Assembly (NCBI RefSeq): GCF_024502345.1
Contig: NZ_JALDNN010000001.1
Source of the DNA: Escherichia coli
GTDB taxonomy: Bacteria; Pseudomonadota; Gammaproteobacteria; Enterobacterales; Enterobacteriaceae
Reading direction: 5' to 3' (one strand)
Length of the DNA: 64,000 nucleotides
Shown here piece after piece: positions 16,846-48,034 of this stretch (the first letter of the stretch is position 1; every line of letters starts with the position of its first letter). The translations under genes and the position numbers were made by a program. The notes beneath the pieces are model-generated. The model worked only from the letters and a program-made list of their open reading frames with translations, was not told the DNA's origin and did no database searches.

Positions 16846-19695
16846 TTGAAATACCTTGCTTCTTTTCGTACAACCCTGAAAGCCTCGCGCTACATGTTCA
16901 GAGCATTGGCGTTAGTGCTCTGGCTGTTGATTGCTTTTTCATCCGTTTTTTACATCGTTAATGCGTTACATCAGCGAGAATCGGAAATTCGTCAGGAATT
17001 TAATCTGAGTTCCGATCAGGCTCAGCGCTTTATTCAACGCACCTCTGATGTGATGAAAGAGCTGAAGTACATCGCCGAAAATCGCTTATCGGCAGAAAAC
17101 GGTGTGCTTTCCCCGCGTGGACGAGAAACGCAGGCGGATGTGCCTGCGTTTGAACCGCTGTTTGCCGACTCCGATTGTTCAGCAATGAGTAACACCTGGC
17201 GAGGTTCTCTGGAGTCATTGGCGTGGTTTATGCGCTACTGGCGCGATAATTTTTCTGCGGCTTACGATCTCAATCGGGTATTTTTAATCGGCAGCGATAA
17301 CCTCTGCATGGCCAATTTCGGTCTGCGTGATATGCCAGTGGAACGCGATACCGCGTTGAAAGCGTTGCATGAACGCATCAATAAATATCGAAATGCACCA
17401 CAAGATGATAGCGGCAGTAACCTCTACTGGATCAGCGAAGGTCCGCGCCCTGGCGTCGGGTATTTTTACGCGTTGACGCCAGTTTATCTGGCGAACCGGT
17501 TGCAGGCGCTTTTGGGTGTCGAGCAGACCATCCGGATGGAGAATTTTTTCTTACCTGGTACGTTGCCGATGGGGGTTACCATTCTTGATGAAAATGGTCA
17601 TACCCTGATTTCGCTTACCGGACCAGAAAGCAAAATTAAGGGCGATCCTCGCTGGATGCAGGAACGCTCCTGGTTTGGCTATACGGAAGGGTTCCGGGAG
17701 CTGGTGCTGAAGAAAAATCTGCCACCCTCATCGCTAAGCATCGTTTATTCGGTGCCGGTTGATAAGGTGCTGGAACGCATTCGCATGTTGATCCTTAACG
17801 CAATTTTGCTGAATGTGCTTGCCGGAGCTGCATTGTTTACTCTCGCGCGGATGTACGAGCGGCGTATTTTCATTCCGGCGGAAAGCGACGCCCTGCGACT
17901 GGAAGAACATGAGCAGTTCAATCGCAAGATTGTCGCCTCCGCGCCAGTGGGTATCTGCATTTTGCGTACCGCTGATGGCGTCAATATTTTAAGTAACGAA
18001 CTGGCGCATACCTATCTCAATATGCTTACGCATGAGGACCGCCAACGACTGACGCAAATTATCTGTGGGCAGCAGGTCAATTTTGTTGATGTCCTGACCA
18101 GCAACAATACCAATCTGCAAATCAGCTTCGTCCATTCGCGCTATCGTAATGAAAACGTGGCCATTTGTGTGCTGGTGGATGTTTCTTCGCGCGTGAAGAT
18201 GGAAGAGTCGTTGCAGGAGATGGCACAAGCAGCGGAACAGGCGAGCCAGTCAAAATCGATGTTCCTTGCCACCGTCAGTCATGAGCTGCGAACGCCGCTG
18301 TATGGCATTATCGGTAACCTGGATCTGTTGCAAACCAAAGAGTTACCGAAAGGCGTCGATCGTCTGGTGACGGCAATGAACAACTCTTCCAGCCTGTTGT
18401 TGAAAATTATCAGCGATATTCTCGATTTCTCGAAGATTGAATCAGAACAGTTGAAGATCGAACCGCGTGAGTTTTCACCGCGTGAAGTGATGAACCACAT
18501 CACCGCCAACTATTTACCGCTGGTGGTACGCAAGCAGTTAGGCTTGTACTGCTTTATTGAACCGGATGTGCCAGTGGCTTTAAATGGCGACCCGATGCGT
18601 TTACAGCAGGTCATCTCCAACCTGTTGAGTAACGCCATAAAATTCACCGATACCGGCTGTATAGTTTTGCATGTTCGCGCTGATGGCGATTATCTCTCTA
18701 TCCGTGTTCGCGATACCGGCGTGGGGATACCGGCGAAAGAAGTGGTGCGCTTGTTTGATCCCTTCTTCCAGGTCGGAACGGGCGTACAGCGAAACTTCCA
18801 GGGGACCGGTCTGGGTCTGGCGATTTGTGAAAAACTGATCAGCATGATGGACGGCGACATCTCGGTAGATTCAGAACCGGGAATGGGCAGCCAGTTTACC
18901 GTGCGTATTCCGTTGTACGGCGCTCAGTACCCGCAGAAAAAAGGCGTGGAAGGGTTGAGTGGTAAACGCTGCTGGCTGGCGGTCCGCAATGCGTCGCTCT
19001 GTCAGTTCCTGGAAACCAGTTTGCAGCGCAGCGGCATCGTCGTAACAACATACGAAGGGCAGGAACCGACTCCCGAAGATGTGTTAATTACTGACGAGGT
19101 AGTGAGTAAAAAATGGCAGGGTAGAGCGGTAGTGACCTTCTGTCGTCGCCATATTGGTATTCCGCTGGAGAAAGCGCCAGGGGAGTGGGTACACAGTGTG
19201 GCTGCTCCGCATGAGCTACCGGCATTGTTGGCGCGTATTTATTTGATCGAGATGGAGAGCGACGATCCTGCTAACGCTCTGCCGTCGACGGACAAAGCGG
19301 TCAGCGATAATGACGATATGATGATTCTGGTCGTGGATGATCATCCGATTAACCGACGTCTGCTGGCAGATCAGTTGGGATCGTTGGGCTATCAATGTAA
19401 AACCGCGAATGATGGCGTCGATGCGCTTAATGTACTTAGCAAGAATCATATTGATATCGTGCTTAGCGACGTCAACATGCCAAATATGGATGGTTACCGC
19501 TTGACGCAACGCATTCGTCAGTTGGGACTGACGTTGCCGGTAATCGGAGTAACTGCTAATGCGTTGGCTGAAGAGAAGCAGCGGTGTCTGGAGTCCGGTA
19601 TGGACAGCTGCCTGTCGAAGCCGGTAACGCTGGATGTGATAAAACAGACGCTGACGGTATATGCCGAGAGGGTCAGGAAATCGCGGGAATCGTAG
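16846..19695 (+). CDS. rcsC: Hybrid sensor kinase RcsC
   Basis: 949 aa with a TTG start, MKYLASFRTTLKASRYMF. H-box SHELRTPL, receiver domain MILVVDDHPINRRLL...DVNMPNMDG. Matches the remembered K-12 RcsC. Confidence 0.97.
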   Translation: MKYLASFRTTLKASRYMFRALALVLWLLIAFSSVFYIVNALHQRESEIRQEFNLSSDQAQRFIQRTSDVMKELKYIAENRLSAENGVLSPRGRETQADVPAFEPLFADSDCSAMSNTWRGSLESLAWFMRYWRDNFSAAYDLNRVFLIGSDNLCMANFGLRDMPVERDTALKALHERINKYRNAPQDDSGSNLYWISEGPRPGVGYFYALTPVYLANRLQALLGVEQTIRMENFFLPGTLPMGVTILDENGHTLISLTGPESKIKGDPRWMQERSWFGYTEGFRELVLKKNLPPSSLSIVYSVPVDKVLERIRMLILNAILLNVLAGAALFTLARMYERRIFIPAESDALRLEEHEQFNRKIVASAPVGICILRTADGVNILSNELAHTYLNMLTHEDRQRLTQIICGQQVNFVDVLTSNNTNLQISFVHSRYRNENVAICVLVDVSSRVKMEESLQEMAQAAEQASQSKSMFLATVSHELRTPLYGIIGNLDLLQTKELPKGVDRLVTAMNNSSSLLLKIISDILDFSKIESEQLKIEPREFSPREVMNHITANYLPLVVRKQLGLYCFIEPDVPVALNGDPMRLQQVISNLLSNAIKFTDTGCIVLHVRADGDYLSIRVRDTGVGIPAKEVVRLFDPFFQVGTGVQRNFQGTGLGLAICEKLISMMDGDISVDSEPGMGSQFTVRIPLYGAQYPQKKGVEGLSGKRCWLAVRNASLCQFLETSLQRSGIVVTTYEGQEPTPEDVLITDEVVSKKWQGRAVVTFCRRHIGIPLEKAPGEWVHSVAAPHELPALLARIYLIEMESDDPANALPSTDKAVSDNDDMMILVVDDHPINRRLLADQLGSLGYQCKTANDGVDALNVLSKNHIDIVLSDVNMPNMDGYRLTQRIRQLGLTLPVIGVTANALAEEKQRCLESGMDSCLSKPVTLDVIKQTLTVYAERVRKSRES

Positions 19696-19888
19696 GACGG
19701 ATAAGGTGTTTATGCCGCATCCGGCATTCAGTGCAAATGCCAGATGCGACGCTGACGCGTCTTATCTGGCCTACTTTAATGTAATCTGTTGAAATAATGG
19801 GAATCGTAGGACGGATAAGGCGTTTACGCCGCATCCGGCAATCGGTGCAAATGCCAGATAAGACACTAACGCGTCTTATCTGGCCTAC
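19685..19888. repeat. Two copies of a ~90-bp REP/BIME unit with a 114-bp period
   Basis: gggaatcgtaggacggataagg...cttatctggcctac occurs at 19685-19774 and 19799-19888. The first copy contains the last codons and the TAG stop of rcsC. Confidence 0.85.
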
Positions 19889-23545: not shown

Positions 23546-23638
23546 AAAAAAAACCGGATGCGAGGCATCCGGTTGAAATAGGGGTAAACAGACATTCAGA
23601 AATGAATGACGGTAATAAATAAAGTTAATGATGATAGC
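23546..23638 (-). ncRNA. micF: MicF antisense sRNA
   Basis: The reverse complement reads gctatcatcattaactttatttattaccgtcattcatttctgaatgtctgtttacccctatttcaaccggatgcctcgcatccggtttttttt. That is the remembered 93-nt MicF with its terminator hairpin, divergent from ompC. Confidence 0.93.
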
Positions 23639-23793
23639 GGGAGATATTCTAGTTGCGAGTGAAGGTTTTGTTTTGACATTCAGTGCTGTCAAATACTTAA
23701 GAATAAGTTATTGATTTTAACCTTGAATTATTATTGCTTGATGTTAGGTGCTTATTTCGCCATTCCGTAATAATCTTAAAAAGTTCCCTTGCA

Positions 23794-31661: not shown

Positions 31662-32110
31662 TATGCTGATAAGACGCGCCAGCGTCGCATCAGGCAACCG
31701 GCTCGGGCGTTAGATGTCGGATGCGGCGTGACCGCCTTATCCGACCTACGGGGTGGAGCACTTCACAGCGGTGTAGGCCTGATAAGACGCGTCAGCGTCG
31801 CATCAGGCAACCGGCTCGGACGTTGGATGTCGGATGCGGCGTAACCGCCTTATCCGACCTACGGGGTGGAGCACTTCACAGCGGTGTAGGCCTGATAAGA
31901 CGCGTCAGCGTCGCATCAGGCAACCGGCTCGGACGTTGGATGTCGGATGCGGCGTAACCGACTTATTCGACCTACGGGGTGGAGCACTTCACAGCGGCGT
32001 AGGCCTGATAAGACGCGTCAGCGTCGCATCAGGCAACCGGCTCGGGCGTTAGATGTCGGATGCGGCGTGACCGCCTTATCCGACCTACGGGGTGACGCAC
32101 TTCACAGCAG
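31662..32110. repeat. Tandem array of about four 113-bp BIME (paired REP) units
   Basis: The unit gtaggcctgataagacgcgtcagcgtcgcatcaggcaaccggctcgg-cgtt-gatgtcggatgcggcgt-accgccttatccgacctacggggtggagcacttcacagcgg repeats. Three track ORFs start exactly 113 nt apart (31721, 31834, 31947) with near-identical translations. Confidence 0.92.
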
Positions 32111-39095: not shown

Positions 39096-39615
39096 ACTGA
39101 GCGCAGCGGTCGTTGGGTTAATTCTTGCCGGGGCTTCCGCACCCGTGATTCTCGATCAGTTTCTGGATGAGAAAGAGGGTAACAGCACAACAGCGTACAA
39201 GGACGGCTCTGGTATATGGACCATTTGTCGTGGCGCTACGATGGTTGATGGCAAGCCAGTAGTTCAGGGCATGAAGCTGTCTGCTGAGAAATGTTCCAAG
39301 GTGAACGCCATAGAACGCGACAAGGCGCTGGCGTGGGTCGAGCGAAACATCAAGGTGCCACTGACCGAACCACAGAAAGCCGGGATCGCGTCTTTCTGCC
39401 CATATAACATCGGTCCCGGAAAATGTTTCCCATCTACGTTCTATAAGCGAATAAATGCTGGCGACCGTGAAGGTGCCTGTGAAGCGATCCGCTGGTGGAT
39501 AAAAGACGGTGGTCGCGATTGTCGTCTGACCAAAGGGCAGAAGAACGGTTGCTATGGTCAGGTTGAACGGCGAGACCAGGAAAGCGCGTTGACGTGCTGG
39601 GGGATAGACCAGTGA
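39067..39615 (+). CDS. SAR endolysin (GH24 lysozyme with an N-terminal signal-arrest-release domain)
   Basis: 182 aa. N-terminal [19 protein letters not shown], then catalytic context [20 protein letters not shown] (E-x8-D-x5-T). Confidence 0.88.
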
Positions 39616-40127
39616 GCCTGCGCTATCAGTTCATTGTTATTTTGTTGCTGGTGGCCGTTGCATTCTTCGCGGGTAGTGTATGGAGCAGCCGCGGTTGGGA
39701 AAAGAAGTGGGCCGAGCGTGACAGCGTAGAATCATCGCAAACAGCGAACGCACAGACCGCCGCTCGCATGATTGAACAAGGGCGTATTATTGCCCGTGAT
39801 GAGGCTGTAAAAGATGCACAAGCACAAGCCGCTAAATCCGCTGCCACTGCTGCTGGCCTGTCTGCCACTGTTAACCAGCTGCGTACCGAAGCAACAAAGC
39901 TTGCCACTCGCCTGGACGCCGCAAAGCACACCGCAGATCTTGCCACTGCCGTCAGAAGCAAAACAGCCGGAGCCGACGCCGCAGTGCTCGCCGACATGCT
40001 CGGACGCCTTGCAGAAGAAGCTCGATATTATGCTGAGCGATCTGACGAAAGCTACCGGGCAGGAATGACGTGTGAGCGCATTTACGACTCAGTGAGGCAG
40101 TCAAACAACAACAGGGTTAGAAGATGA
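39612..40127 (+). CDS. Inner-membrane spanin subunit (Rz-like)
   Basis: GTGA overlap with the endolysin stop. N-terminal [23 protein letters not shown], then an Ala/Gln-rich coiled-coil periplasmic domain. Confidence 0.85.
39814..40068 (+). CDS. Outer-membrane lipoprotein spanin subunit (Rz1-like), fully embedded in the +1 frame of Rz
   Basis: 84 aa, lipobox LPLLTSC with Cys23, and a Pro-rich mature part ([19 protein letters not shown]). Same embedded architecture as lambda Rz/Rz1. Confidence 0.8.
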
Positions 40128-40354
40128 ACGCAGAAAACCTAAGTGAAGCGTATTACCTCAATAACGATATAAAAGAACTACAACTTCAGAAAAGCATACT
40201 GGAAAGTGGTGCCGGACTTGGTGTGACAATCCAGTCTACCTATCAGGATAACGCCTTTCTTGATGCCATACGCCCGCATGCAGTGGCTGAACTTGATCGC
40301 CGTATTGTGGAGAAGAAAAAAAACCTCTCCACTCTGGGTGTTACATTCTCTTAA
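40124..40354 (+). CDS. Hypothetical 76-aa protein translationally coupled to Rz
   Basis: ATGA overlap with the Rz stop. Predicted helical, [29 protein letters not shown]. No family recognised. Confidence 0.5.
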
Positions 40355-40429
40355 ATGAGAACAACAATAAAAGGTTATGTCTGCTTTGCCACATTCTGAG
40401 AGTATGAGTTTTATTTGGTAGTCAATCAG

Positions 40430-40603
40430 TTACTTTATTGGTTTGCTTTCCGATGGAAGATAGATGTTTCCACAGAAGGGGCAAATTAACGTTATATTGT
40501 TTTTTATTCTCGACAGACTGTGCTTTGACTGGCGGGAGCAATGAGGACAAGTACTTTTCACATGGCGTAAAGTACGCATCTTGATATCTTTGAGTATCGA
40601 CAT
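40430..40603 (-). CDS. Small zinc-ribbon protein (57 aa), not in the ORF track
   Basis: My translation of the minus strand is MSILKDIKMRTLRHVKSTCPHCSRQSKHSLSRIKNNITLICPFCGNIYLPSESKPIK. It has CPHC...CPFC pairs and AGGA about 9 nt upstream. It competes with track ORF 40422-40631, which is in another frame. Confidence 0.45.
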   Translation of the reverse strand: MSILKDIKMRTLRHVKSTCPHCSRQSKHSLSRIKNNITLICPFCGNIYLPSESKPIK

Positions 40604-40738
40604 GTTGATTGTCCTGGTGGGCGGTTAACAACCATACACCACATGTTGGCTAATAGCTTCTTTTATAACCGTTACGATGTAGTCGTTAGCCATAATCAAT
40701 CAAGCCTCGCAATAGCGGGGCTTTTTAACAACTGAGGA

Positions 40739-40942
40739 ATGAGCATTACAGTAGTTCTTACAGCTAAGCAGATTGAAGACCTGGCTGCCTTCGCAAAAGA
40801 AGATGGCCAGCCACAATATACCATCACTACCGGAACAATCCCTGAGTTCGAAGCGGATGATGGCGAGGTTATCCCTGAGTACACCGGGCTGATTGCCTAT
40901 TCCGAGTCGCTAGAGCATAGCGTTCTACAGCTCGATAACTAA
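40739..40942 (+). CDS. Hypothetical acidic 67-aa phage protein
   Basis: RBS tgaggaATG, MSITVVLTAKQIEDLAAFAKEDGQPQYTITTGTIPEFEADDGEVIPEYTGLIAYSESLEHSVLQLDN. A decayed paralogue lies at 42742-42918. Confidence 0.6.
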   Translation: MSITVVLTAKQIEDLAAFAKEDGQPQYTITTGTIPEFEADDGEVIPEYTGLIAYSESLEHSVLQLDN

Positions 40943-40978
40943 CGAATCAACATAACTTTCCATCCGCCATGACACCAC

Positions 40979-41135
40979 AATGCTCGTAGACATGCCAGGA
41001 AGCCTGGCAGAAGAAGCTCGATACCATGCTGAACGCGCTGATGAAAACTACCGAGCAGGAATGACATGTGAGCGGATTTATGAGTCCGTAAAAATACTAA
41101 CAATGAACCGTAGAGGAAAAATAATAGCTCTATAA
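40979..41135 (+). pseudogene. 3' remnant of a second Rz/Rz1 spanin gene pair
   Basis: Roughly 80% identical by eye to 39995-40120. It encodes ...[29 protein letters not shown] versus Rz ...[29 protein letters not shown]. The +1 frame keeps QKKLDTMLNALMKTTEQE* versus Rz1 [18 protein letters not shown]. Confidence 0.8.
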
Positions 41136-41514
41136 ATTAAGATGTTGACGGTTTTCGTGGATAAATTTGTGAATTTTTACTATGAAGGAAATACGACTCT
41201 TCCTTGAGTCAAAATCCCTGACAACTTAGGGTGATAGATAAAGGTCTTACGCAGCATGACATAATTTTCGATTTAAGCTATTTAAATTAATTTTTAAGAT
41301 CAAAACCCACTGAGATTTACTTACAAAACTAAACCTTGCTATGTCTGGTTAATCATGCGTTAATGAATGTCTGGTTTGTAACGAATTTATCTGAAGCAGT
41401 CGCTGTAATAATTTTATTCCTTGTTCCTGTTGAGATTTCCTTGTTAGCTTTTCTCTCTGATAAATTTTTTTCGGACCATTCTGCCCAAGGGCTTACTCAA
41501 TAAAGGTAATGTTT

Positions 41515-41727
41515 ATGTCTAATAAAATGACTGGTTTAGTTAAATGGTTTAATCCTGAAAAAGGTTTTGGTTTTATCACTCCAAAAGATGGTAGTAAAGA
41601 TGTGTTTGTTCACTTCTCTGCTATCCAGAGTAATGATTTCAAGACGTTGAATGAGAATCAGGAAGTTGAATTTAGTGTTGAACAGGGACCTAAAGGCCCC
41701 ACGGCAGTTAATGTCGTGGCTGTATAA
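41515..41727 (+). CDS. cspI: Cold-shock protein, CspI/CspB-like (prophage-borne)
   Basis: 70 aa, [73 protein letters not shown]1 motif KGFGFI, RNP2 motif VFVHF. Nearly identical to the remembered K-12 CspI. A long AT-rich leader lies upstream. Confidence 0.9.
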
Positions 41728-41926
41728 GGTAACTGTTATTACTAATAATATTCACTTCAGATGTCCGTGTTGCCACGGATCTCAGTACCGAACGTCAAAC
41801 TTTGATGTTACTGAAAAAAATCCTTTCGGAGCAAAATGTATTTTTTGCAAATCAACAATGATTACATTTGATAATATTGCACTGTACATTCGTTCTGGTC
41901 AGTCTTCGTTAGAATTCAGAAAATAA
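41711..41926 (+). CDS. Small zinc-ribbon protein downstream of csp (possibly YmcF/YnfQ-type)
   Basis: An ATG at 41711 overlaps the csp 3' end. Reads ...[39 protein letters not shown] (CPCC...CIFC). Start codon is uncertain. Followed by a strong terminator. Confidence 0.55.
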
Positions 41927-41931
41927 ATTTC

Positions 41932-41955
41932 AGGCTCCTTATGGAGCCTTTTTTG
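41932..41955 (+). terminator. Rho-independent terminator
   Basis: aggctcc-ttat-ggagcct followed by tttttt. Confidence 0.85.
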
Positions 41956-41999
41956 TATGCTGAACCGACAATCTCTGTAAGAGACATCACGGTAAAATT

Positions 42000-42230
42000 A
42001 TGAAAAAAGTCATCGTTTTTTTTAATGCAGAACCAGCAGTTGTTGTAACCGTAATGAAAGGTATTACTACGATAATGCGTGAGTTTCCCAATGGGGAAAA
42101 AGCACACCTACCCGTGATGTCAGCGGGATTTCCATCTCTGACAGGAGACCATAAAATAGTTTATGTAGCCTCTGATCGTGATGTCAGTTCAGAAGAGATC
42201 CTCGAGGCAGCCTCGAAGCTTTTGAAATGA
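42000..42230 (+). CDS. Hypothetical 76-aa protein
   Basis: ORF MKKVIVFFNAEPAVVVTVMKGITTIMREFPNGEK... with a weak RBS. No family recognised. A stem-loop with a T-rich tail follows (about 42254-42295). Confidence 0.4.
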   Translation: MKKVIVFFNAEPAVVVTVMKGITTIMREFPNGEKAHLPVMSAGFPSLTGDHKIVYVASDRDVSSEEILEAASKLLK

Positions 42231-42434
42231 GATCTGGTTGTTTCGTGACCGACCCGGATTTTAGTACAGTGGTTTGTGTGGTCGCGAGCTCTTTTGCATG
42301 AAGATTGTACTGCAAACTATTGATAATTGAGTCTTTCTATTCTATCTTTTAAACATATCAGCGCTTATACAAGTGCTCTACGGGGAATGTAACATGCCTG
42401 GCGTTGATACGTTAGAGATCAAGAGAGGTAAACA

Positions 42435-42608
42435 ATGAACGTCGAAGATTTAAAAAGAAAAACTGAAGCGGATATTTCTGAATTCATCACAAAAAAAATT
42501 ATTGAACTCAAAAAAAAGACAGGAAAAGAAGTTTCCGATATCCAGTTTAATGCTCGTGAAAAAATGACTGGGCTTGAAAGCTATGATATTAAAATCACAT
42601 TAATCTAA
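42435..42608 (+). CDS. gnsB: GnsA/GnsB-family small protein (57 aa), not in the ORF track
   Basis: My translation is MNVEDLKRKTEADISEFITKKIIELKKKTGKEVSDIQFNAREKMTGLESYDIKITLI*. It closely resembles the remembered K-12 GnsB (...REKMTGLESYDVKIKIM). RBS agagagg. Confidence 0.8.
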   Translation: MNVEDLKRKTEADISEFITKKIIELKKKTGKEVSDIQFNAREKMTGLESYDIKITLI

Positions 42609-42632
42609 TTGTTATAAGACTCAGTTCGAGTG

Positions 42633-42668
42633 AAAAAGCATTATCTTGAAAGGTAATGCTTTTTTATT
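42633..42668 (+). terminator. Rho-independent terminator after the gnsB-like gene
   Basis: aaaaagcatta-tcttgaaagg-taatgcttttt followed by a T-run. Confidence 0.8.
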
Positions 42669-42741
42669 TCTGTCATAAAATTTAGAACGTTGTCAAAGCC
42701 TTCACTTCTAACCACAGATTTTCTGCTTACCTTTTAACGGG

Positions 42742-42918
42742 TCCTCCTTGACGATTCTGACCATCGAGGGGCAGCAGCGGCGCGGGATTTGGAGCATTTT
42801 TGATTCTTCACGCAACCATTTCAGCATTTGATGCTGATGACGGAACACTATCCCCGAATACACTGGGTTTGTTGCATTCTCTGATTCAAAAGAACACGGT
42901 GTGCTTCAACTTGGCTGA
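42742..42918 (+). pseudogene. Decayed paralogue of the 67-aa gene at 40739-40942
   Basis: Three frame segments align to the intact copy: SLTILTIEGQQ vs SITVVLTAKQ, FDADDGTL vs FEADDGEV, and PEYTGFVAFSDSKEHGVLQLG* vs PEYTGLIAYSESLEHSVLQLDN*. There is no start codon and at least two frameshifts. Confidence 0.7.
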
Positions 42919-43011
42919 GCAGGCATTACAGCAGACATTCACTGAGTGCCTGCGACAAAGTTAAATGGCATCAAGCATGCGATGATGATTGATTAATAAT
43001 TGAGCTATGCA

Positions 43012-43020
43012 TGGTATAAT
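43012..43020 (+). promoter_or_regulatory. Extended -10 promoter element (TGgTATAAT) for the downstream zinc-ribbon ORF
   Basis: tggtataat lies 30 nt upstream of the ATG at 43050. A ttgatt at 42989-42994 is 20 bp away, which is too far for an ideal -35. Confidence 0.5.
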
Positions 43021-43049
43021 AAGCCCCATTCATTGAAAGGTTAACCACC

Positions 43050-43214
43050 ATGTCATTTTTCGATTATGCAATGCAGCGTGTTGGGCTTGCAGCCAATACG
43101 ACTGTCATGTGCCCGATATGCGGACATAAATCCACACACTCGACCACGAAAGTACGCCAACAACAGGCGTTACTTTGCCCTAAATGTAAATCGCTGTTTG
43201 TCATTCACAGATAA
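43050..43214 (+). CDS. Small zinc-ribbon protein (54 aa), not in the ORF track
   Basis: My translation is MSFFDYAMQRVGLAANTTVMCPICGHKSTHSTTKVRQQQALLCPKCKSLFVIHR* (CPIC...CPKC). It has its own promoter-like element and two downstream terminators. Track ORF 43066 is the same DNA in another frame. Confidence 0.6.
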   Translation: MSFFDYAMQRVGLAANTTVMCPICGHKSTHSTTKVRQQQALLCPKCKSLFVIHR

Positions 43215-43233
43215 CATGCGACCTGCTGAATAT

Positions 43234-43292
43234 AACCGCCTACGGGCGGTTTTTTATTGCCATCACAAAGGCCACTTTCGAGTGGCTTTTTT
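43234..43292 (+). terminator. Two tandem rho-independent terminators
   Basis: aaccgcc-tacg-ggcggtt followed by tttt (43234-43256), and gccact-ttcg-agtggc followed by tttttt (43271-43292). Confidence 0.8.
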
Positions 43293-43370
43293 AATGGTCA
43301 TCACGACGGGTATTACAGCAGGAATTACTGAGTGCCTGCGATAATGCTCAATATTTTTATCGGAGTGAAT

Positions 43371-43559
43371 ATGCCACCGCGCACACCGAAGGCCGGCCTG
43401 AAAGGGGCGATACAAAAAAGGGAAAAAATGAAAAGACATAAGCGAAATAAAAAAGCCACCACATCTGCAAATGTGATGGCTGGCATTCGGATTAATTCAG
43501 GTTGGCTGAATAAGTTAGCCGCAGATATTACTAAAATAATTAATGAAGCATGTCCCTAA
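43371..43559 (+). CDS. Hypothetical very basic 62-aa protein
   Basis: RBS ggagtgaatATG. MPPRTPKAGLKGAIQKREKMKRHKRNKKATTSANVMAGIRINSGWLNKLAADITKIINEACP, with a Lys/Arg-rich N-half and an amphipathic C-terminal helix. Its 3' end overlaps the convergent gene by 20 nt. Confidence 0.45.
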   Translation: MPPRTPKAGLKGAIQKREKMKRHKRNKKATTSANVMAGIRINSGWLNKLAADITKIINEACP

Positions 43560-43779
43560 TCTCATCTGAGATATCTCTTGGCCCTGCAGGCTGAGGCGCA
43601 ACCAACCGGGTCGGAAGTCTCTCGAAGAAACCACCACCACCATGATGATGAAAACCCCGGTTATTTTTATAACTATTGAAGTTACTGTCGGTAGTGAGAA
43701 GGATGTTGCACTGGTGCGAGCAGTCAACAACAACGACATCACCTGCATTCAGGTGCATTCGTTTGTGAAGAAATTGCAT
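43540..43779 (-). CDS. Hypothetical 79-aa protein, DUF1883-like (tentative)
   Basis: Strong RBS (gataaggagacttATG on the minus strand). MQFLHKRMHLNAGDVVVVDCSHQCNILLTTDSNFNSYKNNRGFHHHGGGGFFERLPTRLVAP... resembles the remembered DUF1883 pattern (HLNxGDxVVVxCSxxCNIxLxxDxNFxxxKNG). It looks shorter than typical family members. Confidence 0.5.
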   Translation of the reverse strand: MQFLHKRMHLNAGDVVVVDCSHQCNILLTTDSNFNSYKNNRGFHHHGGGGFFERLPTRLVAPQPAGPRDISDEIRDMLH

Positions 43780-43947
43780 AAGTCTCCTTATCAAGAGGCA
43801 ATCAGCACTCCTCTCAAGGCTGGTACGCCAACGTCCCACCGCTGACGGGCTGAGCCATTACCTTACCCAGACTCAACGATAAGTAACATCCTGATATTCA
43901 GACAGTAACTGTAATCGATAATGCTGAAGAATAGGCAGTAAATACAG

Positions 43948-44595
43948 GTGACTGATATGGCAACACTGAAGGATTTATCAAACCAGTTAAAGCAACTGCA
44001 AAAGCAAATCCCGTTTGCCACAGCTCAGGCGATGACAAAAGTTGTACGCCAGATTGAGTTGGCTCAGAAGACGGCATTCGAACGACATCTGGAGAGCCCC
44101 ACGCCGTTTACCGTTAAATCAGTTGGTTCGGTGGCGGCAAGAAAGAACAATCTGACCGCAAAGGTTTTTGTCCGTGATACCGCTGCTGGTTATCTGGAAC
44201 CATTCGAGTTTGGCGGAGAGCACAAGCTCAATAGCCAGGCTCTATTAAATCCCAAGAACGTTAAGCTAAACAAATACGGCAACATGCCGCGTAATAAGCT
44301 CTCACAGCTTAAAGCAAAGGAAAATGTATTCGTAGGTGAGGTTGATGGCGTTAACGCTGTCTGGCAGCGTAAGAAGCCGATGAAAGCTAAGAAGCGACGG
44401 GCCAAACGTTCCGCTAACGGGACGCGAAGACCGAAACGCAAACAGCGTTCTCCAAAGCTTTTGATCCGGTTTGGTGATGCGCTACCTGTGACTCCAGTGC
44501 TGGGGTATATGGATAGGGCCCGTACCATGGCGAACGCACTGCTACCGTCTGCTTTAAATCAGGCGATAGCAGAAGCCATCAGGACGGCAAAATAA
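43948..44595 (+). CDS. Phage protein, possibly lambda gpZ / HK97 gp10-like tail-completion family (tentative)
   Basis: 215 aa. N-terminal IPFATAQAMTKVVRQIELAQKTAFERHLESPTPFTVKSV and an internal poly-basic stretch RKKPMKAKKRRAKRSANGTRRPKRKQR recall gpZ-type proteins. GTG start (alternative ATG at 43957). Located upstream of cos, apart from the other structural genes. Confidence 0.4.
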   Translation: MTDMATLKDLSNQLKQLQKQIPFATAQAMTKVVRQIELAQKTAFERHLESPTPFTVKSVGSVAARKNNLTAKVFVRDTAAGYLEPFEFGGEHKLNSQALLNPKNVKLNKYGNMPRNKLSQLKAKENVFVGEVDGVNAVWQRKKPMKAKKRRAKRSANGTRRPKRKQRSPKLLIRFGDALPVTPVLGYMDRARTMANALLPSALNQAIAEAIRTAK

Positions 44596-44632
44596 AAGCA
44601 GTAACTTATAAGTTAATTTCGCAAGCTTTTAT
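44592..44632. terminator. Candidate bidirectional terminator hairpin between convergent genes
   Basis: Outer arms ataaaagc / gcttttat enclose the 14-bp palindrome taacttataagtta (44602-44615). The structure spans both stop codons. Confidence 0.4.
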
Positions 44633-45109
44633 GAAGCTGTTTACTGCAGTTGTCGATCCAGAAACATTGGCTGACATGGAATGCTGGTTTCCGCCATCCT
44701 TTGTTTGCACACCAACTAACACTTTGGATTTCGCCCCCTGAAGCTGCTTAAGCACTGTTTTCAGTTGGTCCGTGTCATCCGATTGAATCTGGAGGCTCTG
44801 AACATTACGTCTTGAAAGGGTAGCATCGAGCTTCACTGCGGTATTCCCGTCGACCTTCATTATCAGGTCCATTGGTACCTCTGATAGTGATTCGGTGCTT
44901 TTATCCATTTCAACGTATGCCGCCGATAGCTTTTCTTTAGTGCAGTCAAACACAATGGCGCCATTGTCGGATGAAACCTCGCCAAGCATCATTGCTTTCT
45001 TACCACCAGAGAAAAGGTCATCTTCAGTATTAGTTACCCACTGGGCATGAGCAATTGGTGATGCCAGCACTGCGGCTACGAAAGTTATTTTGATTATATT
45101 GTTACCCAT
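44606..45109 (-). CDS. Exported (signal-peptide) protein of unknown function, accessory gene on the opposite strand
   Basis: 167 aa from MGNNIIKITFVAAVLASPIAHA|QWV, with RBS aaggagaatgtaATG. Two Cys residues. No family recognised. The track ORF has an 11-codon extension. Confidence 0.65.
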   Translation of the reverse strand: MGNNIIKITFVAAVLASPIAHAQWVTNTEDDLFSGGKKAMMLGEVSSDNGAIVFDCTKEKLSAAYVEMDKSTESLSEVPMDLIMKVDGNTAVKLDATLSRRNVQSLQIQSDDTDQLKTVLKQLQGAKSKVLVGVQTKDGGNQHSMSANVSGSTTAVNSFIKACEINL

Positions 45110-45252
45110 TACATTCTCCTTGTATTGAATAGGAATAATCATAGTCGGAGCGAATGGTCGAAGCCATTAAAAAAATGGGTCCTTCCTGAGACTTTTGTAA
45201 GGCACGGGCATTGCGCGCCGCGGTGTTTTCCTAGCTACAACTTTCAGATTTG

Positions 45253-45400
45253 TGTCCCATGTCCCACCTCTGGCGATCATTACGGACACCTCGCCAGCTC
45301 TGGCTATTCCAGTTTATTCCAGTGGGACATTCTGGTGGGACATGGCAAAAATGTCCCAGGCGAATGTCCCACCCCAGAAAATGTCCCAGGTGATGTCCCA
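45253..45400. promoter_or_regulatory. cosB-like array of eight TGTCCCA heptamers (6 direct, 2 inverted) upstream of the small terminase gene
   Basis: Direct copies at 45253, 45260, 45352, 45365, 45382 and 45394; inverted (tgggaca) at 45323 and 45336. A ~25-bp unit aaaatgtcccagg(c/t)ga(a)tgtccca occurs twice. The last copy abuts the terS ATG. Confidence 0.6.
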
Positions 45401-45969
45401 TGACCACGATGAACCAGAGTCAGTACGCACAACATTCAGGTGTGGATCGCAAAACAATTGGTCGGTGGATTAAAGCCGGGCGCTTCATTGTGATGGACGG
45501 AGACCTGATTGACGTAGAGGCCAGCGATGCGGCATTGAAGAAAAACCGCGATGGCAAAGACCCGCGCGCCTCGAACGCGAAGAAAAAGAAAACTCCCGTC
45601 GTTAGCGATAACGATGATGACGGTGATGAAATCAATAAAACTGTCCGCCAGATAATGCTCACTGAAGGGGCAGATCTTTCGAGAGAGGAAGCGGGACGTA
45701 TCCGCGAGAATTACATGGCCCTGCAGGCAAAGCTGCAGTATGAAAAAGACAGCGGCCAGCTTATTGAGCTGACAGCAGCCGAGGAGGTTTTATTCAACGC
45801 CTTTCGCCAACAGCGTGATGCCTGGCTTAACTGGCCGTCCAGGGTGGCGCCGCTAATGGCTGCTGATCTGGATGTACCGGCGGACAGGATGACAGAGGTG
45901 CTGATTGAACATGTCCACAAACACATCTCAGTCCTCGGAGAGCCAGAGTTTAACCCGGCAGAAGATTGA
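45400..45969 (+). CDS. Terminase small subunit (Nu1-like, N-terminal winged HTH)
   Basis: 189 aa. MTTMNQSQYAQHSGVDRKTIGRWIKAGRF has an HTH like lambda Nu1 (KKQLADIFGASIRTIQNWQEQG). Sits directly upstream of the GpA-type large subunit. Confidence 0.8.
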   Translation: MTTMNQSQYAQHSGVDRKTIGRWIKAGRFIVMDGDLIDVEASDAALKKNRDGKDPRASNAKKKKTPVVSDNDDDGDEINKTVRQIMLTEGADLSREEAGRIRENYMALQAKLQYEKDSGQLIELTAAEEVLFNAFRQQRDAWLNWPSRVAPLMAADLDVPADRMTEVLIEHVHKHISVLGEPEFNPAED

Positions 45970-48034
45970 GCGTCTTGAATTAAGCGTCCGCAAAGGCTGG
46001 ACACCCCCGCCGCGTATCAGTGTGCCGCAGTGGGCAGATGACTATCGTAAGCTGGCAAAAGAGGCTGGGAGCACTTCGGGAAACTGGGAAACATCGACGG
46101 TAGAAATTGCCCGCGGACCGATGCTTGCCGCGACGGAGTCCGGGGTTCATATCATCACTGTAATGTGCTGTACCCAGTTGATGAAGACAGCACTGCTGGA
46201 AAACCTTTTTGGCTATTTTGCCCACCTCGATCCTTGTCCGATACTGCTGCTGCAGCCGAAAGAAGAAGCCGCTGAACAGTTTTCGAAAGAGCGTATTAGC
46301 CCGCTGGTAAGGGTGACGCCGGTACTGCGTAAAATCATCGGTGATTCGAAACAGAAAAGCTCGAAAGAAACCATTCTTTACAAGGCATTCACTGGCGGAT
46401 TTCTGGCGCTGGCGGGTGCTGGTAGCCCTGATAACCTTGCGCGTCGTCCGATTCGTGTCCTGCTGGCGGATGAAGTGGACAAGTACCCGATAACCCGCGA
46501 AGGCGATCCAATTGCGCTGGCCGAAGAGCGTACAGCGACATTTGGCCTGACCTGGCTGTCTGTACGCGCCTGTTCGCCGACGGTGGAGGATGAGAGCCGC
46601 ATTGCTGACAGCTACGCCGACTCCGATCAGCGCCGGGCATCTGTGGTTTGCCCGCACTGTGGCCACCGCCAGTTCCCCGACTTTTTCAAACACGTTCAGT
46701 GGCCGAAAGAGGGAGATAAACACCTGACTAAATCGGCGATGCTCTATTGCGAATGCTGTGGTAGTGGCTGGTCCGAAGGACAGCGCCTCAGAGCTCTGCA
46801 CACTATTCGATGGCATCAGACGCGCCCATTTGAGTGCTGCGGGGAGCGGCACTCACCGCTGATGGATTATGACCTTGCCTGGCGGGCGGCAGACGAGGGC
46901 AGCGTTGAAAAGGTCTGGCAATGGTCAGAGTCGGAACGGCATGCGGTCTATCGCGCAATCTGCCCCTCCTGTGGAAAGGAGGCAGTCGATAACCACCACG
47001 CGGGGTACCAGGCATCCAAGCTTTTCAGCCCCTGGCAAAAAGATAAGCCGTCGGATATTGCGAAAAAATATATCGATGCGAAGGGCGATCCGGATAAGGA
47101 ACAGGCGTGGTGGAATACCCAGATGGGGCTTCCGCACCGACCTAATCATGGGAAACAGCTCCCTGTTGATGTTCTGCTGGCGCGCCGGGAAATATTTCCG
47201 GCCGTCGTTCCGGACGGGGTGGCATTGTTAACAGCTGGAGTTGATACCCAGGACGATCGCTTCGAAATTACGATCACCGGCTGGGGGAGAGATGAAGAAT
47301 CGTGGTCGGTCGCGCATGACGTTATTTATGGTGACCTTGAGACGGAAGAACCCTGGAAGCGACTGGATGCATACCTGAAACAGATCTGGCGACGTGGTGA
47401 CGGGCGCGGCCTGAATATCATGGCAACGTGCATGGACTCCGGTGGCCACCATACGCAGAAGGTATACGAATTCGCCAAAGAGCGTCTTGGCCGTCGTGTC
47501 TGGGCAATTAAGGGGGAGTCTGCACAGGGAGGTAAACGCAATCCTGTCTGGCCGACCAAACGACCATCATCGAAAAGCAAAGCCAGTTTCCGCCCTGTCA
47601 TTCTGGGGGTTAACTCAGCGAAAGACGTGATACGCGGTCGCCTGCATCTTGAGCCACCCAAACCTGGCGCCGCCGCTGCGGGTTATATGCATTTTCCTGA
47701 CGATCGCGATCTCGGGTACTTCAATCAGCTGCTGGCGGAGCGACTGGTTTACAAAGTCATTTCCGGGCAGCGGTACAGTATCTGGGAAGCAATACCAGGA
47801 CGAGCTAACGAAGCGCTTGACTGCCTCGTTTACAGCTATGCCGCGCTGTGCGGTCTCAAACATATGGGGTTAAAACTCAACGTCCGGGCCGCCAACCTCG
47901 AAGCCGATCCGGATAAGTTCCTGCCAGCGCCAGTTGGACAGGAAGAAAAAATCAATTACGAGCTGCCGGGTGCGGTTATTGAAGAACCAGCGCCGGTCAA
48001 ACGTAAGCGAATATCGCAACTCCTGCCGAAATAA
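45905..48034 (+). CDS. Terminase large subunit (lambda GpA family)
   Basis: 709 aa. Lambda-A-like landmarks: VPQWADDYRKL, zinc finger CPHCGHRQ...CECCG, AGVDTQDDRFE, RANEALDCLVYSYAAL. The start overlaps terS by 65 nt (alternative ATG at 45911). Confidence 0.92.
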   Translation: MNMSTNTSQSSESQSLTRQKIERLELSVRKGWTPPPRISVPQWADDYRKLAKEAGSTSGNWETSTVEIARGPMLAATESGVHIITVMCCTQLMKTALLENLFGYFAHLDPCPILLLQPKEEAAEQFSKERISPLVRVTPVLRKIIGDSKQKSSKETILYKAFTGGFLALAGAGSPDNLARRPIRVLLADEVDKYPITREGDPIALAEERTATFGLTWLSVRACSPTVEDESRIADSYADSDQRRASVVCPHCGHRQFPDFFKHVQWPKEGDKHLTKSAMLYCECCGSGWSEGQRLRALHTIRWHQTRPFECCGERHSPLMDYDLAWRAADEGSVEKVWQWSESERHAVYRAICPSCGKEAVDNHHAGYQASKLFSPWQKDKPSDIAKKYIDAKGDPDKEQAWWNTQMGLPHRPNHGKQLPVDVLLARREIFPAVVPDGVALLTAGVDTQDDRFEITITGWGRDEESWSVAHDVIYGDLETEEPWKRLDAYLKQIWRRGDGRGLNIMATCMDSGGHHTQKVYEFAKERLGRRVWAIKGESAQGGKRNPVWPTKRPSSKSKASFRPVILGVNSAKDVIRGRLHLEPPKPGAAAAGYMHFPDDRDLGYFNQLLAERLVYKVISGQRYSIWEAIPGRANEALDCLVYSYAALCGLKHMGLKLNVRAANLEADPDKFLPAPVGQEEKINYELPGAVIEEPAPVKRKRISQLLPK

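Follow-up and report, generated by a model that had tools for sequence, protein, structure and literature searches.

The window analysed here is the whole stretch of 64,000 nucleotides (nt) of Escherichia coli contig NZ_JALDNN010000001.1, in which two imperfect direct repeats surround a small zinc-ribbon gene of the YnfU family, in what seems to be a prophage. These repeats are copies of a family of junction hairpins that punctuates the accessory-gene (moron) region of temperate Enterobacterales phages and probably provides points of gene swapping. Comparison of sequences allowed us to show that the family exists, how it is structured and covaries and where it is located, and further that its flanks assort freely, where the cassette of the window begins and ends, and that one pair of occupied and empty sites exists. 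An earlier note on this DNA had seen in the repeats the footprint of an insertion or duplication at the locus; they turned out to be two members of a widespread structured family.

The two repeats (42923-42961 and 43310-43347 in the coordinates used here, both on the + strand) differ by few substitutions and, as the earlier note required, can be aligned pairwise, with one 1-nt indel. Both fit the covariance model of the hairpin family from end to end and are thus members of it: copy 1 scored 56.7 bits (E 1.7e-13) and copy 2 46.4 bits (E 1.6e-10). In a mismatch-tolerant pattern search for the repeats, the chance expectation was 0 matches in 100 shuffles, and no third copy of the hairpin was found in the 64-kb window by a covariance-model search with filters off. 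Copy 1 reads GCATTA-CAG-CAGACATT-cactg-AGTGCCTG-CGA-CAAAG, its upper stem contains an A·C mismatch, and its 3′ base module is CAAAG in place of TAATG. Copy 2 reads GTATTA-CAG-CAGGAATT-actg-AGTGCCTG-CGA-TAATGC, with an A·G mismatch and a 4-nt loop. Both are located between Rz (39594-40127) and the terminase genes (from 45400); copy 1 begins 4 nt past the stop of a decayed gene and copy 2 sits after a terminator.

We assembled a family sample of 222 copies in 170 phage or prophage sequences, 219 of them with both flanks. The element is about 40 nt long, with the architecture 5′-GCATTA-CAG-(8-bp stem, 5-nt loop)-YGA-TAATGC-3′. Its base, a GCATTA/TAATGC helix followed by a CA/GA internal loop, is conserved in sequence; the upper stem drifts in sequence but keeps its pairing. 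In 26 copies not selected by the search pattern, conservation reached 93–95% in both base modules, 78–86% in the upper stem and 62% in the loop. A stronger conservation of the 3′ arm than of the 5′ arm was considered and dropped, since the values in this unbiased subset were 0.949 and 0.932, respectively. In 72 distinct copies, 96.1% of the upper stem cells were paired and double-sided changes were observed in 64 cells versus 17.6 in shuffles. The observed covariation score was reached by none of 500 shuffles, and sliding the partner by 1–3 columns as a control left a pairing of only 32–45%. Compensatory variants of the stem include CAGGCATT/AGTGCCTG, GAGCCATT/AGTGGCTT, AAGCTCTT/AGGAGCTT and AAGTCACT/AGTGACTT, and phiP27, cdtI and Fels-1 carry the variant CAGCCCTT/AGGGGCTG. 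As judged from these alignments, the covariation of the stem reveals that folding of the element is being selected. On the gene-sense strand, 111 G·T pairs were counted versus 14 A·C pairs, and this excess would indicate that it is the gene-sense strand which folds. The predicted stability of the hairpins ranged from -17 to -22 kcal/mol. By their sequence they are not intrinsic terminators: neither window copy appeared in the terminator scan, no T-run follows the hairpin and the following sequence is variable.

Other explanations of the conservation were examined and rejected. A coding explanation fails because the open reading frames (ORFs) of most families end before the element and because substitutions keep pairing, not codons. 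An ATG present at the 3′ end of the element could have represented a general start or a sequestered initiation region, but ORF lengths in this frame were the same as in the other two.

The hairpin is widespread. Its 42-nt consensus matches 52 phage records, and named carriers include phi80, mEp390, cdtI, phiP27, ST64B, Fels-1, Pectobacterium ZF40 and many Klebsiella prophages. Searching IMG/VR with the right half alone returned at least 120 contigs, where the left half, left unconstrained, was conserved as well. A pattern fixing the base modules only identified 47 stretches in species-representative genomes, with Citrobacter, Enterobacter, Klebsiella, Kluyvera, Pectobacterium, Erwinia, Serratia, Rahnella, Ewingella and Salmonella among the genera; we take the genera of all 47 stretches to belong to Enterobacterales. 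In E. coli, a match was found in 409 of 5426 complete genomes, at 1–4 places each. Rfam gave no match at E up to 1 for the window copies or for the four copies of locus L092, and literature searches with the literal sequence and with keywords found no published description of the element; the family is apparently undescribed so far. A single record stands apart: in OM284015.1, labelled Elizabethkingia phage EKP1, this element, otherwise seen in Enterobacterales only, is present at 100% identity, and the host assignment or the assembly of this record may be wrong.

The position of the element is also characteristic. In phi80, mEp390, ZF40, phiP27, cdtI, ST64B, Fels-1 and L092, copies lie between the lysis and the HNH/terminase genes, and the orientation of copies is that of the flanking genes (gene-sense). 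Among 82 upstream flank families with a co-oriented ORF, this ORF ends between -1 and +3 nt of GCATTA in 29 and at most 14 nt away in 45, and the next start codon is typically found 15–35 nt downstream of the hairpin. Two to four copies are present in 38 of the 170 sources, on a single strand in all but one, about 310–750 nt apart and with one small gene per interval. The hairpin-gene-hairpin layout of the window thus corresponds to the normal architecture of the family. Four copies were truncated at different internal positions.

What lies on either side of the hairpin assorts freely. Among the 219 copies with both flanks, 89 families of upstream flanks and 117 of downstream flanks are joined in 153 combinations: a DUF2560-type gene, which forms one of the upstream families, is associated with 17 different downstream partners, and one of the downstream families is associated with 12 upstream partners. 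We also identified an occupied/empty pair. Between the same flanking genes, L105 carries a single hairpin, and L092, L065, L072, L120 and L123 carry a hairpin-330 nt-hairpin arrangement; in the L105/L092 pair, the joint falls within the common 3′ module GGCTTCGATAATGCT. The single-copy empty site that the earlier note expected in related prophages therefore exists for this different cassette, but not, among the sequences compared, for the YnfU cassette: its exact empty site (67-aa gene, single hairpin, then HNH) was not found. The cassette of about 330 nt (5880-6169 in L092; also in L065, L072, L120 and L123) contains no convincing ORF and has no Rfam match, and this DNA between hairpins may be a non-coding RNA cargo.

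We then consider the unit enclosed by the window repeats, which comprises, as the earlier note had stated, a putative promoter, an ORF of 54 amino acids (aa) with CPIC and CPKC motifs and two predicted terminators. The putative sigma-70-type promoter with an extended -10 (42993-43020, + strand; TTAATA, 16 nt, TGgTATAAT) has 10/12 consensus matches plus an upstream TG. It is the best promoter-like site within 40000-46000, and is kept as TGGTATGAT in the relatives L055, L096 and L089 (75–85% identity). The ORF (43050-43214, + strand) matches the NCBIfam YnfU family NF038384 over residues 1-53 with 72.9 bits (cut-off 36) and Pfam PF23499 with 32.3 bits (cut-off 27); besides YnfU, its Pfam matches were to generic zinc-ribbons only. 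Its translation carries two CPxC zinc knuckles (CPIC, CPKC) and is predicted to bind zinc. The same motif has been described for YnfU, a small protein of unknown function that was detected in abundance (bioRxiv 10.1101/511675). By its profile matches, the 54-aa ORF is a bona fide YnfU-family member. PADLOC defence-system models and PDB sequence matches for the ORFs provided nothing informative.

Intrinsic terminator 1 (predicted; 43234-43257, + strand) consists of the hairpin AACCGCCTACGGGCGGTT at 43234-43251 and a T-run. Terminator 2 (predicted; 43271-43292, + strand), with the hairpin GCCACTttcgAGTGGC at 43271-43286 followed by TTTTTT, folds as predicted; its hairpin is also listed on the minus strand by the terminator scan, and it is present in L055 and absent from L096. 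A module of about 35 nt comprising terminator 1 (43234-43266; 3125-3160 in L002), AACCGCCTACGGGCGGTTTTTTATTGCCATCAC, recurs in many unrelated phages, among them ZF40, Ayreon (where a terminator is annotated), mEp460, SEN34, L181 and L183; conserved terminators may serve as recombination linkers too. With a single ORF, its own promoter upstream and a terminator downstream, as far as sequence alone can tell, and with a 67-aa gene and hairpin present without the cassette in mEp390, L052, L061 and L102, the YnfU cassette is an ordinary moron.

Public assemblies contain the exact 54-aa protein in 323 indexed blocks, and we compared its neighbourhoods at the eight places listed, where the identical ORF occurs in at least five neighbourhood types. 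At five of these places (L179, L181, L182, L183 and L184), blastn gave 98% identity to the window between 42917-42923 (left edge of copy 1) and 43213 (stop of the ORF), and the flanks on both sides are unrelated to those of the window. The conserved unit found by blastn across different phage contexts (42921-43213, + strand) hence consists of copy 1, the promoter and the YnfU ORF. The right end of copy 1, CGACAAAG(C/T)TAAATGGC, is common to all eight loci with the identical ORF, so that this odd 3′ module is a feature of the cassette and not a decay in the window. A formation of copy 1 as a hybrid in the window lineage was likewise discarded, its odd right end being fixed in the cassette in all contexts. 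By contrast with this end, the G-to-A change that creates the A·C mismatch in the upper stem is restricted to the window lineage (L177, L178, L180).

Downstream of the ORF, the loci diverge. Two alternative terminator alleles follow it, the alternative one being present in L179-L184, and in L180 and L181 extra genes (rha, KilA-N) and another hairpin are inserted there. L178 is 99.8% identical to the window as far as the left edge of copy 2; from copy 2 on, it carries the phi80 hairpin allele and phi80-like downstream DNA. In Citrobacter phage Chris1, 42932-43213 (promoter and ORF) is shared at 96%, and the hairpin preceding it is a different and perfect one. E. coli genomes matched the 1.1-kb region in fragments only. 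With at least five types of neighbourhood, a boundary at the left edge of repeat 1 and the switch of L178 at repeat 2, the locus indeed behaves as the hotspot for cargo exchange between phages that the earlier note had proposed. Its description of a cassette flanked by the repeats holds on one side: repeat 1 is the left edge, but the right end is the stop of the ORF or the terminator, not repeat 2.

Copy 2 can be assigned to what follows it. Its variant is identical in L055, although the flanks in L055 are only 85% identical to the window, and there it precedes an intact-looking start of an HNH endonuclease, which continues MPPRTPKACRVRGC. HNH also directly follows a hairpin in relatives, and an E. 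coli match annotated as HNH endonuclease spans 43314-43393. In the window, the start of the HNH endonuclease gene amounts to 8 codons, MPPRTPKA (43371-43393, + strand), and homology stops at 43393. By these comparisons, copy 2 belongs as 5′ hairpin to the HNH module that comes next, now broken and with only 8 codons left. The 62-aa ORF predicted at 43371-43559 consists of these 8 HNH codons followed by unrelated DNA; being chimeric and containing a strong, terminator-like hairpin on the minus strand (43454-43481), it is probably not a real gene.

To the left of copy 1, protein and DNA alignments revealed a decayed homologue of the 67-aa gene family PHROG 9518 (42742-42918, + strand), start-less and frameshifted as had been noticed before. 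Translated in frame 0, 42701-42921 can be aligned with residues 26-41 of the 67-aa protein and, past a 1-nt frameshift, in frame 2 (IPEYTGFVAFSDSKEHGVLQLG, then the stop) with residues 44-65; a start codon and a recognisable N-terminus are absent from this gene, and its stop TGA is at 42916-42918. It had been taken for a paralogue of the intact gene at 40739-40942, a view which we abandon: the two align poorly at the DNA level, and the decayed gene shows 72–75% nucleotide identity to alleles in L004, L011, L052, L061 and L102, where an intact 67-aa gene has one hairpin directly after it. On these identities, it is a second, foreign allele brought in by recombination and not a recent local paralogue. 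The intact 67-aa gene of the window is followed by a 119-nt copy of the Rz 3′ coding end (40971-41089 versus 39975-40093, 82%), and the gene order in relatives is Rz, 67-aa gene, hairpin. Hence it seems that another segment of the type ‘Rz ... 67-aa gene-hairpin’ was appended, whose own 67-aa gene is now decayed, and the Rz-end copy looks like the scar of an unequal crossover. The cargo of the appended segment consists of CspA-like, YmcF-like and GnsA/B genes.

Since numerous phages have the same 30–40 nt at numerous boundaries between genes, recombination of one copy with another would swap what lies on either side. Such exchange would be driven by homology, through ordinary or phage Red/RecT-type short-homology recombination between copies. 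As the YnfU cassette keeps its private 3′ module, crossovers would fall in the approximately 30 shared nt to the left of this module. The YnfU unit (hairpin, promoter, ORF and terminator) would in this manner have been recombined into a patchwork with the dead 67-aa gene and the truncated HNH gene. Pairing may be selected in the sense-strand RNA of a late read-through transcript. There, by analogy with bacterial repetitive extragenic palindromic (REP) hairpins and T7 RNase III sites, the hairpin might tentatively be seen as an intercistronic insulator, a processing site or a stabiliser.

Several observations weigh against this explanation. The sample was seeded by sequence patterns, so that copies close to the consensus are over-represented, and the shuffle control ignores the kinship of the sequences. 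Function and the folding strand or molecule are deduced from the asymmetry of wobble pairs only. Stem mismatches are present in both window copies. Both arms of the base are conserved in sequence as well as in pairing, which would be more in keeping with a site recognised by a protein or enzyme than with a hairpin that simply confers stability. Where the upstream gene ends in a terminator of its own (window copy 2, L132, L137, L163 and L175), the hairpin comes after the T-run and therefore cannot serve the transcript of that gene. Identity at the crossover of the L105/L092 pair extends over about 15 nt only, a short length for recombination of the RecA type. Finally, YnfU cassettes at 75–85% identity (L055, L096, L089) stand directly after the o-spanin gene without an upstream hairpin.

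The closest described system is that of the promoter-early stem-loop (PeSL) cassettes of the virulent T4-type phages RB49 and phi1 (Arbiol et al. 2010, PMC2839356). Both elements are short, repeated intergenic stem-loop motifs extending from the upstream stop codon to before the Shine-Dalgarno (SD) sequence of the next gene, and the two cluster in hyperplastic regions made up of small, non-essential ORFs. When PeSL copies recombine with each other, the genes between them are shuffled, deleted or inserted (PMC2839356), as the comparison of flanks suggests here. The junction hairpin could then be a PeSL-like combination of attenuator and promoter, its 3′ arm TG-Y-GATAAT acting as an extended -10 for the downstream cargo gene. 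Once formed in read-through RNA, the hairpin would attenuate transcription arriving from upstream, and recombination between copies would be a by-product, as in T4-type phages. We regard this as unlikely. It is true that GATAAT is nearly invariant, that TG stands at the correct spacing in 53 of 72 copies and that the YnfU cassette, which has a strong putative promoter of its own, has lost the box (GACAAA). The succession of stop codon, element, SD and start is also that of PeSLs, including a stem-loop overlapping the -10 box (PMC2839356), with the start codon at the above-mentioned distance of 15–35 nt. However, PeSLs possess a full consensus sigma-70 promoter and a strong-terminator stem-loop (PMC2839356), whereas the junction hairpin has at most a -10-like box, no T-run, which argues against an intrinsic terminator, and a conserved base with a covarying top. 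No -35 is present at 16–18 nt (the best candidate matches 3/6, and ATTACA is 23 nt off), and neither window copy was in the promoter scan, so that a consensus sigma-70 promoter is missing; TG itself is missing in 19 of 72 copies. The 5′ and 3′ arms are equally conserved. The element is often directly before HNH/terminase, where a constitutive promoter would seem harmful in a lysogen, and in phi80 it is still intact with the next gene on the other strand. The settings differ too: PeSLs belong to virulent T4-like myoviruses, the junction hairpin to the lysis-packaging interval of temperate Enterobacterales phages.

The likeness to integron attC sites is of another kind. Both are imperfect palindromes located after single ORFs, organised in same-orientation arrays, with an unpaired central part, a base conserved in sequence and a variable top of conserved structure. 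A structure-specific recombinase or nuclease of the phage or the host would, if the analogy were complete, act on the folded conserved base and excise or insert single genes. This is in our opinion quite improbable. Same-strand arrays with one small gene per interval, elements abutting the stop codon in many unrelated gene families, a base conserved on both arms below a variable and covarying top, and the joint of the occupied/empty pair in a 15-nt 3′ module would all agree with it. Yet neither an integron integrase (IntI tyrosine recombinase) with an attI site nor another recurrent candidate enzyme was found beside the arrays in the ORF maps of the flanks, and the consensus GCATTACAG...YGATAATGC lacks the core sites RYYYAAC/GTTRRRY. 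The recombinogenic strand of attC is the bottom strand, whereas the wobble asymmetry favours the top, gene-sense strand. The four truncated copies, broken at differing internal positions, suggest non-fixed breakpoints, and the confinement of the element to one syntenic region is that expected of spread by flanking homology and not by transposition. Junction-hairpin cassettes, unlike those of attC, can moreover carry their own promoters and terminators. An inverted repeat acting as double-stranded DNA operator for a dimeric regulator would account for inverted GCATTA half-sites conserved on both arms, but it would leave unexplained the compensatory changes in the 21 nt between them, not expected of a duplex operator, and the strong sense-strand excess of G·T over A·C; with half-sites about 33 bp apart, we hold it for very improbable. 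A purely local event, in which the 36-mers would stem from target-site or flank duplication at insertion of the cassette, is hardly credible in spite of the two direct repeats around a self-contained promoter-ORF-terminator unit. The same sequence is present as a single copy in hundreds of other phages beside unrelated genes, the window copies are different alleles, each common to different relatives, and conservation of the cassette reaches no further than the ORF stop, short of copy 2. Neither a transposase nor terminal inverted repeats, which would speak for target-site duplication by a transposon or insertion sequence, are present.

A translational control similar to that of Mu Com, in which the zinc-ribbon protein would bind the hairpin, was also envisaged and rejected: most of the 222 hairpins have no YnfU nearby, the distant YnfU cassettes have no hairpin upstream, the second YnfU gene of the window has none, and the Pfam matches other than YnfU were generic zinc-ribbons. 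This second YnfU-family zinc-ribbon ORF (57 aa, 40430-40603, minus strand) scores 76.4 bits with NCBIfam, and no junction hairpin adjoins it.

REP and bacterial interspersed mosaic element (BIME) hairpins, like T7 RNase III sites, are imperfect intercistronic hairpins of approximately 35–40 nt near stop codons, credited with stabilisation or processing of messenger RNA. The junction hairpin resembles them in being about 40 nt long, imperfect, intercistronic and near stop codons. There is, however, no sequence similarity, and the Rfam family naRNA4 (REP-type) matches elsewhere in the window, not at the hairpins. The junction hairpin also differs from REP/BIME in occurring at 1–4 copies per genome and in prophages only. 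The cargo recalls the cold-shock/gns region of the Qin prophage of E. coli K-12, where members of the CspA, YmcF and GnsA/B families lie near ynfU: the window likewise has a YnfU-family ORF, and its CspA-like, YmcF-like and GnsA/B neighbours match these small-gene families. In contrast to K-12, the window ORF is a different allele and is preceded by a junction hairpin.

Other features were recorded in the window. A cspA-type thermoregulator leader (Rfam RF01766, 142.8 bits) with a cold-shock-domain gene and then a YmcF-like ORF (Pfam, 126 bits) occupies 41370-41960, and the terminator region after the YmcF-like ORF resembles the Salmonella small RNA STnc220, with 43 bits, under the gathering score. 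The bidirectional terminator after the GnsA/B gene (42633-42664) has a stem GCATTA...TAATGC, identical to the base hexamer of the junction hairpin, and a weak covariance-model match of 16.5 bits; this stem could be due to chance or be what remains of a hairpin base. The 150 nt just before the terminase small-subunit ORF (45250-45400; ORF at 45400-45969) contain eight copies of (A)TGTCCCA, distributed over both strands, and all 7 exact ATGTCCCA matches of the 64-kb window fall there; this cluster is probably a terminase or cosB-type binding array. Further upstream, 19695-19885, 23546-23639 and 31664-32085 correspond to features of the host chromosome (MicF RNA and two naRNA4 (REP-type) clusters), and the prophage seems to start at about 32–33 kb and to run beyond the end of the window.

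The origin of phage mosaicism is a long-standing question, homologous exchange at short linkers being opposed to illegitimate joining at random with subsequent selection. For lambdoid mosaicism, linkers in the form of short conserved sequences at boundaries were proposed, according to the works cited in PMC3029335 (its references 21-22), and linkers cannot be found at most module boundaries (PMC3029335). Like those linkers, the junction hairpin is a short conserved junction sequence that would let homologous recombination reassort the flanks; it differs from them in being specific, structured, widespread and covarying, and is thus more than plain homology. It represents a concrete linker in the lysogenic-conversion/accessory-gene region of temperate enterobacterial phages and makes the linker question testable, with arrays, assorting flanks and an occupied/empty pair at hand. 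It also offers a means of locating cargo genes and of predicting how mobile they are. If the reading of the hairpin as an attC-like site were true, it would be the phage counterpart of integron attC sites, with dedicated cassette exchange in temperate phages.

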